A stretch of 21,302 nt of DNA from an uncultured Candidatus Saccharibacteria bacterium (GTDB lineage Bacteria > Patescibacteriota > Saccharimonadia > CAILAD01 > JADZBC01), in NCBI GenBank assembly GCA_964573585.1, contig CAZNJX010000005.1, forward strand, positions 1-21,302, written 5' to 3'. The notes beneath the pieces are model-generated. The model saw nothing but the letters and a program-made list of their open reading frames with translations. It had not been told where the DNA came from and did no database searches. The position numbers and the translations under genes were made by a program. This document shows positions 4,391-13,672 of this stretch, in pieces (positions within the stretch are counted from its first letter, which is position 1; each line of letters starts with the position of its first letter).

Positions 4391-4465
4391 TGGGGCGTCG
4401 CCAAGTGGTAAGGCACCGGCTTTTGGTGCCGGCATTCGGGGGTTCGAATCCCTCCGCCCCAGCCA
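4391..4465 (+). tRNA. tRNA-Gln (anticodon UUG), CCA encoded
   Basis: Manual cloverleaf: acceptor UGGGGCG/CGCCCCA with U1-A72 and G73 (bacterial tRNA-Gln identity elements). D-arm GCC-AAGUGGUAA-GGC. Anticodon stem CCGGC/GCCGG with loop UUUUGGU (anticodon UUG). V-loop CAUUC. T-arm GGGGG-UUCGAAU-CCCUC. 3' CCA. Confidence 0.85.
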
Positions 4466-4497
4466 AGCATTTATACTAAATTAGTCCAACAGGTTAA

Positions 4498-4525
4498 AGA
4501 GCCCACTCGGAAGTGAGTGGGCTCT
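4498..4525. terminator. Hairpin agagcccactc-ggaagt-gagtgggctct downstream of tRNA-Gln, usable as terminator from either strand
   Basis: 11-bp perfect stem. On the minus strand it is followed by a U-rich run (uuuaaccuguugg). A degenerate copy occurs at 8035..8057. Confidence 0.5.
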
Positions 4526-4534
4526 CTGCGTAAA

Positions 4535-4590
4535 GTGATAATAACGTACTGCACCCCGGGACAAGTCCCGGGGGTGCGAATTGGTTAAGG
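4535..4590 (-). repeat. 3' element A, variant copy 0: GTGATAATAACG + GC hairpin gcaccccggga-caag-tcccgggggtgc
   Basis: Shares the 12-mer gtgataataacg with copies at 6372 and 8777. Hairpin sequence differs but position and tail are conserved, so on the gene strand it reads hairpin + aguaCGUUAUUAUCAC. Confidence 0.6.
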
Positions 4591-4639
4591 ACCCCATCGT
4601 CTGTGACGGTCGGCCGATGCGGGCCTTGCCGTCTTCGGC

Positions 4640-5665
4640 TCAGCGCTGGCGGTGATGCCAGCGATCCCTGCGGCGGCGGCCGATCATCTTCTGGAGTTCA
4701 GGCACTGAGTAGGTGCCCTCCTCCGGCTCGATACCATCCTTGGCAACCAGCGTCTTCACCATGATGCTCCCGTCGCGGTAGGCGGCGGCGGTGAAGGTGT
4801 ACTTCGTGCCGCCCTTGGCGACCACGAAGGGTTCTTCGATCTCCCCGAAGGAAGTCTGGAACATCGTGACGCCGCGAGCGACGTTGGCCGAGCGGGTCTC
4901 CGGCCCCTGGGTGGTGTGCCGCAGAGGGAAGTCCGAATCCGAGCAGTGCTTGCCAGTGCTGTAGCGCTTAACGTACGCGTCAAGCTTAGGCAGGTCGATG
5001 TGACCCCAATCCATGCCATAAGCCCCGATCGGGATGCCGTCGAGCATGTCTCGGATGCCGAGCTGGGCAAAGAGGGCACCGAGACTCTCTTCTGCAGGCA
5101 TGAGAGTATCGATGAACTCCTCATGCGCCTTGTGGGCCGCCGACTCGGCTTCCTGCTTGGCGATGAGCTCGTCGATAATCGGATGCGGAGAAATCTTGCC
5201 TTCCGCAACCAAACCCTTCAACTCGTGCACCGACACCTTGATGTCGCGATCGCGGACGATCGTCAGCATCGCCTCCAGCTCCTCGCTGGCCGGCACCGCG
5301 GCAAGGATCCCGGCACGGAGCGCGTCGAACGCCGCGCGGTCTCCGAACTCAGCCGCGAGCTCGTCGATGTGACGTTGGTCGCTCTGATGCGGATGTTCAG
5401 ATGCCGCGTACCAGCAGGCACACAGTGTACCGCTATTGATCTGCGGGGTGTGCTCCAGCAACTTCATGGCACGCCACGACTGGATGAGCATGTGCGGCAT
5501 CACGAGGCCCCAGATGGACCCACTGCCCTCGCTCGAGAGTTGATAGCCGACTCCGAATGAAGCGAACTCGCCTTCCCTGTCGGTTCCCGCAAACGGGATG
5601 ACCTCGTGCTCCTGGCCATCGATGACCTTGGTGCACGGATTTCCTTGGGCGACCAGAACGGTCAT
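4640..5665 (-). CDS. Hypothetical protein, about 65% GC (cargo 1). Weak suspicion of a DinB/MDMPI-like N-terminal domain (His-rich PHML...HTP...HPH).
   Basis: ORF-track ORF trimmed to the ATG at 5665, which lies 5 nt downstream of the conserved GAAAGGGG SD of leader L1. C-terminus ends in an Arg-rich tail GRRRRDRWHHRQR. No family recognised by eye. Confidence 0.7.
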   Translation of the reverse strand: MTVLVAQGNPCTKVIDGQEHEVIPFAGTDREGEFASFGVGYQLSSEGSGSIWGLVMPHMLIQSWRAMKLLEHTPQINSGTLCACWYAASEHPHQSDQRHIDELAAEFGDRAAFDALRAGILAAVPASEELEAMLTIVRDRDIKVSVHELKGLVAEGKISPHPIIDELIAKQEAESAAHKAHEEFIDTLMPAEESLGALFAQLGIRDMLDGIPIGAYGMDWGHIDLPKLDAYVKRYSTGKHCSDSDFPLRHTTQGPETRSANVARGVTMFQTSFGEIEEPFVVAKGGTKYTFTAAAYRDGSIMVKTLVAKDGIEPEEGTYSVPELQKMIGRRRRDRWHHRQR

Positions 5666-5707
5666 GTTGCACCCCTTTCTAAGGGCTCTTGTATCTAATA
5701 TTTCAAG
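5666..5707 (-). promoter_or_regulatory. Conserved 5' leader L1 (CTTGAAAT-N16-CCCTTAGAAAGGGG-N5-ATG)
   Basis: Homologous to leaders at 7813..7855 and 11504..11544. SD-like AAAGGGG sits 5 nt before the ATG in all three. Confidence 0.7.
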
Positions 5708-11503: not shown

Positions 11504-11544
11504 ACTGTCCCCTTTCTAAGGGATTGGTGTTTAGAAATTTCAAG
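11504..11544 (-). promoter_or_regulatory. Conserved 5' leader L3 (CTTGAAAT-N15-CCCTTAGAAAGGGG-N5-ATG)
   Basis: The 14-mer cccttagaaagggg is identical to L1. The octamer cttgaaat is identical in all three leaders. Confidence 0.7.
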
Positions 11545-11588
11545 GAGTCTAAATTGGAACTGTATTTCAGTATCCGAAAAGACGATTT

Positions 11589-11617
11589 ATTCTACTATGA
11601 AACAGGTAAGAACTCAA
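11589..11617 (-). promoter_or_regulatory. sigma70-type promoter P3 (minus strand TTGAGT-17-TAGAAT)
   Basis: Read on minus strand: ttgagt tcttacctgtttcatag tagaat. The downstream aatcgtcttttcgg block is shared with P1. Confidence 0.55.
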
Positions 11618-11653
11618 TACTTTTATCCCTGTTATGCTAGATACAGCCTACCT

Positions 11654-11684
11654 GTTTCGATCTAAGCCAGGCAGCTCTATAGCG
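11654..11684. repeat. Distal degenerate tRNA-Gln T-loop/3'-end-like block (gtttcgatc...agccaggca), putative outer boundary of the island
   Basis: gtttcga-tc aligns to the tRNA T-loop ggttcgaatc, and agccaggca to the 3' end agccaagca, in the same order. GC drops to host level beyond this point. Confidence 0.35.
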
Positions 11685-11686
11685 CG

Positions 11687-13672
11687 CTACTTCTTCTCGA
11701 AGTTCCAGATACTTAAAGTGCCGGAATTAATCGTAACACTAAGCTTGCGGGTGGAAGTGCTAGCGGGTAGCTCAATACAGCTCGTGAAGCCACCGTAGGC
11801 AGCCGTTCTGGTAACTGGCGATACTTGGGCAGGGCTAACACTGATGGTGTAGCTTGCGTTGGTCTGAGTCCCCACAGAGCCAAGGAAGCAATAACGCCCT
11901 GGTGTCGAACTGGTGGTATCAACCGTAACCTTGAGCGGGTTGGTGGCTGGTGGGTTAGTAACAGGGTTGGCTGTACCGCTCCAATATCGCCCACCATTGG
12001 CTTTTTGGACTATGGTGCCCCCTGTGGTCGTAAAGTCAGCCGCCAGCCATTTTGTTTTATCGGGCGTCTGGTTCGAAGACTGGGGCTGAATGCCGGCCGT
12101 GGTAATGATGGCGTGATCATTGGCCTTCTGGTCACCGTTGAGGTCTTTGCCAAAGCTACGCCATTCGTTCCAGGATCGAGCCGCGCCATTAAACCCAAAG
12201 GCCATGTTGGTGGTGTAATGGTTGTAATCAATCGTGTAGTTACTCAAGTTACCGCCCTGGGCATTGTAGGCTGGGATTGAGGCAGCGATAGCCTGGTCGC
12301 CCGACTGGCGGATAACGTTGCTACGAATAATAACGTTGTTGGTTGGGTCTGGATAGTGCGGGTCGTCAATTAATAGGATGCCACGGCCGTTGTTGTAAAT
12401 GTAGTTATTTGCTATGGTAACGCCCTTGCCAGACGAAATACTGATAGCACCTTGGCTATCTTGAATAGCGTTGCCGCCACCAAGACTACCATGCACGCCG
12501 CCATTGCGCTGAATTAAATTGTTCGTAATGGTGGCTTTGAGGCTGATTTCGTGGAAAATACCGTTTTGAACATTGTCTTCAACCAGGTTGGCATCGAAGG
12601 TGATGTTGTCGTTAAAGCCATCCGCCCACAAGCCCGGTCCGATATTATGATGGACCCAGTTGTTACGAATTACGCTACCATTAGTGGCCCAGAACTTCGT
12701 GCCACCGGCCTCCCAGCCATAGTTAAAGTGGCTATTGTTGTTATACGCGATCTCGGTGTTATCGACCGTGACTTTATAAACAGCGTGCCCATAGTCGTTG
12801 TCGATGCCGTCGCCCCCATTCGCACCAACACCTATCTGGCCATTGCGAATAAACTTGGAGTACGTTACCCGTGGGTTGTTACCCAGCAGGGTGATGCCTT
12901 GGCCGGCGTTTAACTGCGAGGTGACGTTTTGGACCAACCAGCCATCGTTTGTTTGGATTGCCCCTTGCTGCGCCTGCTGAGCGTACTTTTCGATCGTTAG
13001 ATCACGCACCGTGACGTTGACTGCACCACCGGCTTGGCTAGGACCCGAACCTGGCCTGGCACCATCGAGTGCACGGCGCACAGCACCCACCTCGACCTTG
13101 TGCCCACTTGGATTTGTGGCAAAGTAAACCCTATTGGCAGCATGGTCAAAAAAGTACTTGCCCGCGCTGACAGCGCCAAGGCTAGTGGTGGCAACCTGCG
13201 GCACATCGTCGACATAGAGCAAGACCGGTTCTGTACAGGCTGGATAATCTGGGTCGCAGTAACCAGCAGCGCCTAGCTCTTGGGTTTGATTGCTTGCATA
13301 CCACAGACTGCCAGACTGGCCGAAGCTGCTAACCAAGTTTGAGCCGTTGAGATACGTTTTATCTTGCCCGCTACCGACGATAATATTGCCCGACTTGGGC
13401 CGCAGGGACTGCCCGCGGTAAACACCCTCTGCCAAGCAGATCGTGGTGTTGGCAGGGTTTGCGTCAATAGCCGCTTGGATATCACCGCCAACAGGCACAG
13501 ACACACCGCTACAAACCGGCACAGCAGCATATGTTAAATAAAGTATGACTGATCCCGTGAGGGCAACAACAAAAACAACAATTGCGAGGGTAATGACATT
13601 GATGCGTGGCGACTTATTAAGGATGGTCGAGAGCTTTGATCGGATTGGCTTAGTGGGCTTGTCTGTCGTCAT
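11687..13672 (-). CDS. Right-handed parallel beta-helix repeat protein (pectate-lyase fold) with N-terminal signal-anchor TM, probable surface protein
   Basis: 661 aa. N-terminal helix VITLAIVVFVVALTGSVILYLTY. Repeated NNxI/V..N turns (TITNNLIQRNGG, VTIANNYIYNNGRG, VIIRSNVIRQSGD). Host-like GC. Confidence 0.8.
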   Translation of the reverse strand: MTTDKPTKPIRSKLSTILNKSPRINVITLAIVVFVVALTGSVILYLTYAAVPVCSGVSVPVGGDIQAAIDANPANTTICLAEGVYRGQSLRPKSGNIIVGSGQDKTYLNGSNLVSSFGQSGSLWYASNQTQELGAAGYCDPDYPACTEPVLLYVDDVPQVATTSLGAVSAGKYFFDHAANRVYFATNPSGHKVEVGAVRRALDGARPGSGPSQAGGAVNVTVRDLTIEKYAQQAQQGAIQTNDGWLVQNVTSQLNAGQGITLLGNNPRVTYSKFIRNGQIGVGANGGDGIDNDYGHAVYKVTVDNTEIAYNNNSHFNYGWEAGGTKFWATNGSVIRNNWVHHNIGPGLWADGFNDNITFDANLVEDNVQNGIFHEISLKATITNNLIQRNGGVHGSLGGGNAIQDSQGAISISSGKGVTIANNYIYNNGRGILLIDDPHYPDPTNNVIIRSNVIRQSGDQAIAASIPAYNAQGGNLSNYTIDYNHYTTNMAFGFNGAARSWNEWRSFGKDLNGDQKANDHAIITTAGIQPQSSNQTPDKTKWLAADFTTTGGTIVQKANGGRYWSGTANPVTNPPATNPLKVTVDTTSSTPGRYCFLGSVGTQTNASYTISVSPAQVSPVTRTAAYGGFTSCIELPASTSTRKLSVTINSGTLSIWNFEKK

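Follow-up and report, generated by a model that had tools for sequence, protein, structure and literature searches.

The question raised by this locus is why the sequence lying directly behind a tRNA-Gln gene returns kilobases further along the same contig, within a tract whose base composition differs from that of its surroundings. The window, by which we mean the whole stretch of DNA analyzed, is one entire contig of 21,302 nt from a metagenome-assembled genome. An exonuclease-like flank gene is 88 to 92% identical to genes of five Saccharimonadia/Saccharibacteria metagenome-assembled genomes, which identifies the host as a TM7 bacterium. The only tRNA gene found, tRNA-Gln(TTG) at 4391-4465 on the forward strand, is intact with its CCA encoded (ARAGORN; Rfam tRNA, 62 bits). 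To its left lie ordinary low-GC genes, among them peroxiredoxins, a superoxide dismutase, and a PolB-exonuclease-like gene at 3575-4291 (Pfam). From 4466 to about 11.6 kb the GC content is 0.57-0.65, as against 0.48-0.52 outside, and inside this high-GC island there is a trough of 0.38-0.40 at 5.8-6.4 kb; the GC profile agrees with the three-way mosaic seen in a preliminary description of the sequence. That description had also proposed that integrase-less elements accreted in tandem at the tRNA 3′ end. We conclude that the region from 4466 to about 11686 is probably a genomic island, formed as an accretion array at a serine-recombinase attachment site and now made up of recombinase-less cassettes. 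Three lines of evidence support accretion by site-specific integration: the variable flanks of tRNA-Gln in related genomes, an empty and an occupied site in a pair of related loci, and a recombinase family found at this very site.

Repeats behind tRNA-Gln and their counterparts in related genomes

The repeat, which we call J, consists of a conserved left block (J-left), then CAGCCA, then a flank and a hairpin. The J-left consensus is the 22-nt TCTAGACCACARCGCTCAGCCA, which ends in the same CAGCCA as tRNA-Gln and is also present in other genomes. Two matches to it lie in the window, at 5833-5854 (21/22, one mismatch) and 7981-8002 (19/22, three mismatches), compared with 0 by chance. At the tRNA itself, an attL-like junction is formed by a “type-1” flank, AGCATTTATACTAAATTAGTCCAACAGG, with a hairpin A (4498-4525), together spanning 4466-4525 on the forward strand (J-profile nhmmer E 3e-21; hairpin fold z -5.4). 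A full J copy follows at 7972-8061 on the same strand, with J-left at 7981-8002, the type-1 flank, and hairpin A at 8031-8060 (E 8e-19; z -3.3). Because the J profile was built from four copies, these two among them, both E values are partly circular; support independent of the profile comes from the 18-mer CTAAATTAGTCCAACAGG, which recurs in the window with 2 mismatches against 0.03 expected. The claim that the tRNA-Gln flank and hairpin re-occur near 7975-8060 was thus borne out, 4436-4525 being colinear with 7972-8061. The same type-1 flank also follows J-left in L001, L075, L080, and L093 (loci from other genomes are designated by L numbers).

The remaining copies in the window are graded in quality. 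The junction at 5808-5854 (forward strand) comprises an extension and the 22-nt block at 5833-5854 (TCTAGACCACAGCGCTCAGCCA), with the core CAGCCA terminal; the shorter remnant cgctcagccaag that had been noticed at 5845-5856 proved to be part of this block. Its flank at 5855-5895, on the same strand and with a terminator-like hairpin, resembles the native tRNA-Gln flank of strain L004/L088, which makes this an attR-type junction. A degenerate J-left copy (TCCAGATGCGACGCTCAGCCA) lies at 6301-6321 on the forward strand, directly after the stop codon of a DUF1801 gene. Here the remnant reported at 6312-6322 holds as an exact 11-mer and fails as a full block: the exact match covers about 10-11 nt (CGCTCAGCCA), and the full 22-mer needs 6 edits. 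What makes the copy plausible is chiefly its position, immediately behind a stop codon and in front of a repeated module termed the T element; J-left is placed alike in L080, where it too comes immediately after a stop codon. Where GC drops to host level, a candidate and unproven distal core, CTAAGCCAGGCA, lies at 11662-11673 on the forward strand. It matches the L001b core at 11/12 positions, a match that also arises in 18/100 shuffles of the window and is not significant, and its distance to its promoter is about the same as that of the J-left blocks at 5833 and 7981 to theirs. Of the block that the preliminary description placed at 11654-11684, then, the core at the GC drop stands, its significance does not, and neither does its likeness to a T-loop.

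How much of the repeat is tRNA? We rejected J-left as a tRNA fragment, since it gave no tRNA-like match in Rfam even at E<=10 and no conserved T-stem was seen by inspection. The part of the tRNA that recurs is the last 6-10 nt only, C[C/T]CAGCCA; the view that the repeats are tRNA 3′ ends is correct for those bases and not for the rest of J-left, and the conserved arm is best read as element sequence. Nor is the repeat simply part of a promoter scaffold, since J-left is also found in L033, L038, L048, L053, L080, and L093, which lack that scaffold. A reading of the type-1 flank as a reverse-strand promoter was dropped, as the spacing between two hexamer-like motifs misfits by eye. Just upstream of the 22-nt J-left, two direct TGTCYCA motifs stand 9-10 nt apart; the window copy has ATGCCCCA twice (5808-5832), and further pairs occur in L001 (at about 6472-6500), L075, L062, L038, and L033. 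Judged by their arrangement, these motifs could be protein-binding sites.

Comparison with relatives gives the repeat its meaning. Among close relatives with an identical tRNA-Gln, 8 contigs with a readable flank carry 7 different sequences directly after CCA, and homology breaks directly after the CCAGCCA of tRNA-Gln; the block is therefore not one that is fixed with identical junctions throughout the clade. The empty tRNA-Gln site that the preliminary description had proposed to look for was found in L005, where just a short, terminator-bearing native flank separates the tRNA from low-GC genes. That flank is also present in L001, nearly identical across about 95 nt but at a distance of 8.3 kb from the tRNA and with TCTAGACCACAACGCCCAGCCA immediately before it; the two loci represent an empty and an occupied site with attL/attR-type structure. 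This pair, together with the change of sequence right after CCAGCCA, is why we regard the repeat as a recombination scar. The direct repeat of the tRNA end is clear at the far boundary in L001 and L098, and internal copies lie in the window at 5845-5854 and 7993-8002. Inside the L001 island lie a further two full copies of J and two of T. Its cargo differs from the window's and includes a MaoC gene, 81% identical to the window gene. The MaoC cassette has been found in at least five different neighborhoods, which argues that the block is neither fixed nor ancient.

J-left occurs in L001 (three copies), L075, L080, and L093, and in four unrelated low-GC metagenome contigs. The latter emerged from a scan of metagenomes in which the J pattern gave 54 matches, about 50 of them by chance on high-GC contigs; L033, L038, L048, and L053 are real. 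On all four contigs that hold both features (the window, L001, L053, and L093), J-left has the orientation of tRNA-Gln, whatever the strand of the neighboring genes. In L033, J-left and core adjoin the flank seen behind the tRNA of L003/L087. A single low-GC gene separates tRNA-Gln from a full J in L093 (a 73% relative), and L053 shows the arrangement at tRNA-Gln(CTG), with the native flank duplicated. Five scans of viral contigs (IMG/VR) for the J, type-1 flank, T, and recombinase-arm patterns gave chance matches or none. A separate MaoC lineage (P0004; L061-L070) was tried as a J-type cassette and set aside: it has no J profile, T, or leader copies, with only a J-left-like 22-mer of 4 mismatches in four loci, and MaoC therefore lies there in another context. 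Local tblastn found no informative match by which to place the right boundary of the window by synteny, and the L002-L004 contigs end at the tRNA.

Some observations bear on the wider region. An amino-acid permease gene at 19287-20498 of the window is 79% identical to one at 8731-9939 of L093, which there lies between tRNA-Gln and the exonuclease-like gene; since the gene is 15 kb from tRNA-Gln and inverted in the window relative to L093, the surrounding region has been rearranged between lineages. Low-GC cargo stands next to J-left in L033 (331-1172) and L048 (179-1012), including a gene that is restriction-endonuclease-like by eye (no family search was made) and a 174-aa gene with no PADLOC match, so cargo is not restricted to Actinobacteria-like genes. 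L048 also holds a weak PADLOC candidate, PDC-S32.

A serine recombinase family at tRNA-Gln

No integrase, transposase, or recombinase domain was found anywhere in the window, either with Pfam or by tblastn with the recombinase, in agreement with what had been noted from the open reading frames (ORFs). Sister strains supply the candidate enzyme, a 496-aa large serine recombinase with Resolvase, Recombinase, and Zn_ribbon_recom domains. Its family is large, with members almost all of 488-509 aa and most of 493-497 aa; we sampled six members in 16 contigs (L085 and L094-L105, with recombinase 3′ ends in L033, L087, and L003). The gene is accompanied by a Replic_Relax gene and a 53-57-aa ORF and, on some contigs, by a DUF87/TrwB-like ATPase gene. 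In L094-L096 and L098-L102 it converges on tRNA-Gln (TTG or CTG), its stop codon lying about 80 nt from the tRNA 3′ end, and L097 has the same recombinase-side flank after the tRNA 3′ end, the tRNA being cut by the end of the contig. Altogether the family is found at tRNA-Gln in at least nine related contigs, with the junction always directly after CCAGCCA. A recombinase at tRNA-Gln is thus found as a large serine type in sister strains and not in the window itself. From its domains, the likely enzyme is a serine and not a tyrosine recombinase.

L098 and L100 share an island of at least 11.5 kb (1-11653) at 99.8% identity, lying next to tRNA-Gln(TTG) in one and next to tRNA-Gln(CTG) in the other; the upstream DNA is unrelated, and identity starts at TCCCCAGCCA. 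Further copies of CCCCAGCCA at 9.5 and 9.9 kb show the L098 island to be composite (internal cores at L098 2076 and 1643). The occurrence of this whole composite at two tRNA-Gln genes gives indirect support to mobilization in trans or by an adjacent element. In L085, whose flank gene is 92% identical to that of the window, the recombinase gene abuts the tRNA CCA and is truncated at the junction. There (4963-6318) it is cut at about residue 452, its normal 3′ end and the left arm missing, and further into the island lie a degraded second Replic_Relax copy and a direct repeat of about 115 nt; in the 6.3 kb of available sequence the L085 element showed no attR.

L033 connects J-left with this family. 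The flank shared by L003, L087, and L033 is the left end of a recombinase element, including residues 440-496, where the L033 sequence is 84% identical to P0191, a recombinase of the L085 type. Because the L033 flank is an element's left end, J-left there occupies the position of the tRNA body, and by its structure the junction is apparently attP-like or tandem. A comparable junction without a tRNA is found in L103-L105, which come from three samples, about 80 nt past the recombinase stop codon and with a different arm (...GGACTGCCTATCCAGCCA), which may represent a circular or tandem, perhaps conjugative, form. Beyond this non-tRNA arm lie a DUF87/TrwB-like ATPase gene in L103 and L104 and restriction/modification-like genes in L103.

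These findings fit the following sequence of events. The attachment site in this Saccharimonadia clade would be the last bases of tRNA-Gln (...C[C/T]CAGCCA; B arm and core ...CGCCCCAGCCA), and the elements using it would encode the 496-aa recombinase. Each integration would leave the tRNA intact and push the tRNA-adjacent sequence outward, the displaced flank becoming fused to the right arm of the incoming element (J-left, 22-46 nt) and a short core. Successive integrations and exchange between strains would stack modules separated by J-left and core junctions; the array in the window would then comprise the tRNA junction, two clear J-left junctions, one degenerate one, and one doubtful terminal one. 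The 6301-6321 copy looks decayed, and so does the terminal block. The cassette at 4466-5854, bounded by the tRNA core and a J-left core, has one cargo gene and no recombinase domain; likewise bounded, with a single cargo gene and free of recombinase domains, is the unit that runs from the degenerate 6301-6321 copy to 8002. Since the window holds no recombinase, we take its cassettes to be units of the recombinase-less cis-mobilizable element (CIME) or pseudo-staphylococcal cassette chromosome (pseudo-SCC) type, whose movement would require either a recombinase acting in trans or an autonomous neighbor to move with. We infer that the 496-aa family acts on J-left, that the cassettes arrived by site-specific recombination at tRNA-Gln, and that they may still be able to move.

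Several points weigh against this account. The window itself contains no recombinase, and not even a fragment of one was found there or in L001, L080, or L093. There is no empty-site comparator for the strain of the window, and the distal match at 11662-11673 is not significant. With a shared core of only 6-10 nt, the direct repeat by itself is weak evidence. Serine integrases normally recombine attP with attB, so that stacking at a hybrid site needs relaxed half-sites or another order of events. The type-1 flank is unlike the left arm of the recombinase elements, and the cassettes in the window may therefore not be substrates. When J-left was aligned to the right arm of the L098 element, the one recombinase-element right arm identified, 62 to 1218 of 2000 shuffles scored at least as high for the four copies; homology between the two was not supported, and the link between J-left and the recombinase consequently depends on L033. 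Finally, Saccharibacteria are naturally competent, so homologous exchange could explain much of the shuffling.

That last point leads to the alternative that survives best, namely that the region is a patchwork in which DNA acquired from related strains underwent homologous recombination at shared noncoding modules (tRNA, terminators, T elements, and promoter and leader copies), and that the J copies are old fixed scars or shared intergenic sequence, with no present-day site-specific mobile unit in the window. The window and L001 do contain long, near-identical noncoding repeats (T elements at 96% identity, and leaders) that could serve as recombination substrates; the edge of the L001 island, a truncated T fused to a truncated gene, resembles an illegitimate or homologous deletion; and in the window a T element and a vault-like cassette hold the place that a dehydrogenase gene has beside MaoC in L001 and L080, the junction being a short similar motif and not J. 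The lack of a recombinase in the window would be expected as well. Left unexplained, however, are the breakpoint at the same base after CCA in many lineages with J-left always abutting CAGCCA, the dedicated recombinase family at tRNA-Gln, and the presence of one identical island at two tRNA-Gln genes. We consider this alternative unlikely as the explanation of the array, but the two processes are not mutually exclusive, and homologous shuffling probably acts on top of site-specific insertion.

Cargo genes and expression signals

The cassettes of the array carry genes of differing GC content and a common set of expression signals. On the reverse strand lie a 341-aa ORF at 4640-5665 in cassette 1 (GC 0.60-0.65; no Pfam or PADLOC match), a high-GC 442-aa ORF at 6484-7812 in cassette 2 that is probably a membrane protein (a weak EI24/CysZ match only), a MaoC-dehydratase cassette at 8091-8757, and, at 8882-11503, a high-GC gene for an 873-aa protein resembling major vault protein. 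The MaoC cassette contains a GC-rich hairpin terminator (8091-8112), the gene (8137-8673; Pfam PF01575, E 1e-22), and a promoter (8729-8757); its closest homologs outside Saccharibacteria are in Acidimicrobiia, at about 70% identity. The vault-like protein matches MVP_shoulder (E 9.5e-24) and Vault_3 (E 3.6e-10) in Pfam and the major vault protein in PDB (E 8e-22 over residues 507-868); it also has an SPFH-like stretch. The DUF1801 gene at 5905-6300, on the forward strand (Pfam PF08818, E 1.2e-9), accounts for a different composition, with a GC content of 0.38-0.40, and lies between two J-left copies; the observation that a low-GC gene is trapped between remnants stands for its composition and for the clear copy to its left, and is weak for the degenerate one to its right. 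A reading as a defense island was rejected, as no cargo gene in the window gave a PADLOC match. An exact-protein look-up of two window proteins found no record.

Three copies of a promoter and leader module of about 130 nt (with a 5′ leader of about 85 nt) each precede an unrelated high-GC ORF and end in GAAAGGGG-N5-6-ATG. All are on the reverse strand: a low-GC copy at 5667-5794 (nhmmer leader profile E 5e-24; ending GAAAGGGG-N6-ATG), a second at 7814-7945 (E 1.6e-27; promoter-like TTGATT-17-TATAGT), and a third at 11505-11640 (E 5e-27; promoter-like TTGAGT-17-TAGAAT). The T element is a module of 105-120 nt, in which, read on the gene's sense strand, CGTTATTATCAC comes after two hairpins. 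Its copies lie at 6363-6481 (105 nt of which are 96% identical to 8775-8879; nhmmer E 5e-37) and at 8767-8881 (from repeat search, nhmmer, and consensus fold), and a partial T-like terminator module, GTGATAATAACG with a hairpin at 4551-4577, lies at 4534-4577 (repeat search; nhmmer T profile E 2.5e-4), all on the forward strand. T elements stand directly downstream of the stop codons of unrelated genes, the L001 copies being at about 8048-8166 and 2910-3017, and a truncated T copy at L001 5981-6015 marks the edge of a high-GC block in that island. The GC content switches within a few bases of the start codons, behind the conserved leaders. To judge from these sequences, most cargo appears to consist of single high-GC ORFs that resemble genes of Actinobacteria and are fitted with a Saccharibacteria-type promoter and leader and with shared terminators, the native expression signals being matched precisely to the foreign ORFs. 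A second, isolated high-GC ORF at 16586-17425 (GC 0.62-0.65, no family) lies within 16487-17575 among native genes and has its own sigma-70-like promoter; a J-left-like string on the reverse strand near 17553-17572, agcgctcag-taagataa, is not significant.

The precise placement of unrelated high-GC ORFs between a native-type promoter and leader and a terminator module suggests a more far-reaching possibility, that the array is a working gene-capture platform of an epibiotic Candidate Phyla Radiation (CPR) bacterium, a serine-recombinase counterpart of the integron with single-ORF cassettes that have standard ends. One end of such a cassette would consist of J-left, an inward-facing promoter, and the conserved 5′ leader stopping 5-6 nt before the ATG; the other would consist of the type-1 flank, hairpin A, and the T element. 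Genes captured from the high-GC Actinobacteria cells that the epibiont probably lives on would be given native expression signals, and a serine recombinase working in trans would shuffle the cassettes among strains at the CCA end of tRNA-Gln. We regard this as quite unlikely. The array does share with integrons small, mostly single-gene units that are stacked at one site in one orientation with a conserved, recombination-site-like repeat between them. An integron proper was rejected: unlike integrons, the locus has no IntI tyrosine recombinase (no tyrosine recombinase domain was found in the window or in L001), attI, or Pc promoter, and each of its cassettes has a promoter and a terminator to itself. 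J contains a single palindrome, a perfect hairpin of the terminator type with a T run behind it; an attC-type structure was not evident, no attC model having been run.

The hairpin also invites the explanation that J is a small nonautonomous repeat, either a terminator-carrying intergenic element or a miniature inverted-repeat transposable element, whose likeness to the tRNA is a coincidental match of 6 nt. J-left does follow ordinary-looking low-GC genes on contigs with no tRNA (after a deformylase gene in L080, and in L062), 9 of the 12 listed copies have an intrinsic-terminator hairpin behind them, and by Rfam J-left is not tRNA-like. What makes this very improbable is that J-left, wherever it shares a contig with the tRNA, always points the same way, and that in three cases the tRNA-Gln flank of another strain stands to the right of the core, a signature of recombination at the tRNA end as opposed to repeat insertion; in addition, reading the junctions by eye revealed neither terminal inverted repeats nor target-site duplications, although no specific search for them was made. 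An assembly chimera mixing Saccharibacteria and Actinobacteria DNA, or chance similarity, might be suspected from the sharp GC switches in a single contig of a metagenome-assembled genome but can be dismissed with near certainty, given that independent assemblies of other samples (L001/L072-L079, L080) contain the same J, T, and MaoC junctions, that the switches fall so close to start codons behind conserved leaders, and that the repeat statistics of the J-left 22-mer and the 18-mer exclude chance.

Comparison with known integration hotspots

Read as a recombinase-based accretion array, the locus adds a new example to a known class of integration hotspots. The ssrA islands of Dehalococcoides are arranged in tandem downstream of the 3′ end of a small RNA gene, with a CcrB-like large serine recombinase on the reverse strand next to attL; beside the direct repeat, on the element side, they have a conserved motif that cannot be aligned to the target gene, and many lack an integration module and were read as cis-mobilizable elements (PMC3146451). 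The anatomy of our locus matches theirs almost point for point, with J-left as the counterpart of their conserved nontarget motif. The target differs, being tRNA-Gln of both isoacceptors here and transfer-messenger RNA in Dehalococcoides, as does the shared core, 6-10 nt at the CCA end as opposed to 20 bp in the T-loop. The integration module here comprises a Replic_Relax protein, the 53-57-aa ORF, and one recombinase, in place of the DsiA/DsiB pair, and the units in the window are single-gene cassettes with their own promoters, unlike the Dehalococcoides islands.

The accretion of integrative and conjugative or mobilizable elements in streptococci (ICESt1/ICESt3 family) likewise involves site-specific integration at the 3′ end of a conserved gene; decayed CIMEs there keep attL and attR with no integration or transfer genes, and later integration next to them gives cis-mobilizable tandem arrays (PMC5704250). 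Those arrays mostly use tyrosine integrases and have longer identity blocks that rebuild the 3′ end of the target, whereas our candidate is a serine recombinase, and the arm of the element bears no relation to the tRNA. In staphylococci, the Ccr large serine recombinases insert SCCmec and pseudo-SCC cassettes at the 3′ end of a conserved gene, rlmH (orfX); SCC arrays are separated by short direct repeats, and cassettes without ccr depend on Ccr in trans. Target, host phylum, and cargo differ from SCC, and the recombinase here is a single gene. The Ccr parallel has been drawn before, for the Dehalococcoides islands (PMC3146451). A looser likeness is to the tycheposons of Prochlorococcus, tRNA-anchored islands of a streamlined genome in which older elements are pushed inward, partial-tRNA scars and degraded elements are left behind, and one tyrosine-recombinase clade (474/501) together with replication modules defines the group (bioRxiv 10.1101/2020.12.28.424599). 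Our locus does not belong among them: its associated recombinase is of the serine type, the recurring part of the tRNA is just 6-10 nt where tycheposons leave recognizable partial tRNAs, and J-left again fails to match any Rfam tRNA at E<=10.

In the searchable literature we found no description of integrative elements, of such islands, or of this recombinase family in Saccharibacteria. A widespread family of 496-aa serine recombinases with a defined target, the CCA end of tRNA-Gln, is now a candidate enzyme. Serine integrases with short known sites are useful as tools, and genetic tools for CPR bacteria are scarce. The cargo, with its Acidimicrobiia-like MaoC gene (about 70% identity) and its vault-protein-like gene, may record transfer from host bacteria into the epibiont, and the tidy match of native promoters and terminators to foreign ORFs bears on how genes come to be expressed once acquired. 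For Saccharibacteria, bacteria with tiny genomes, the locus would represent a concrete site-specific route by which genes are gained and swapped.

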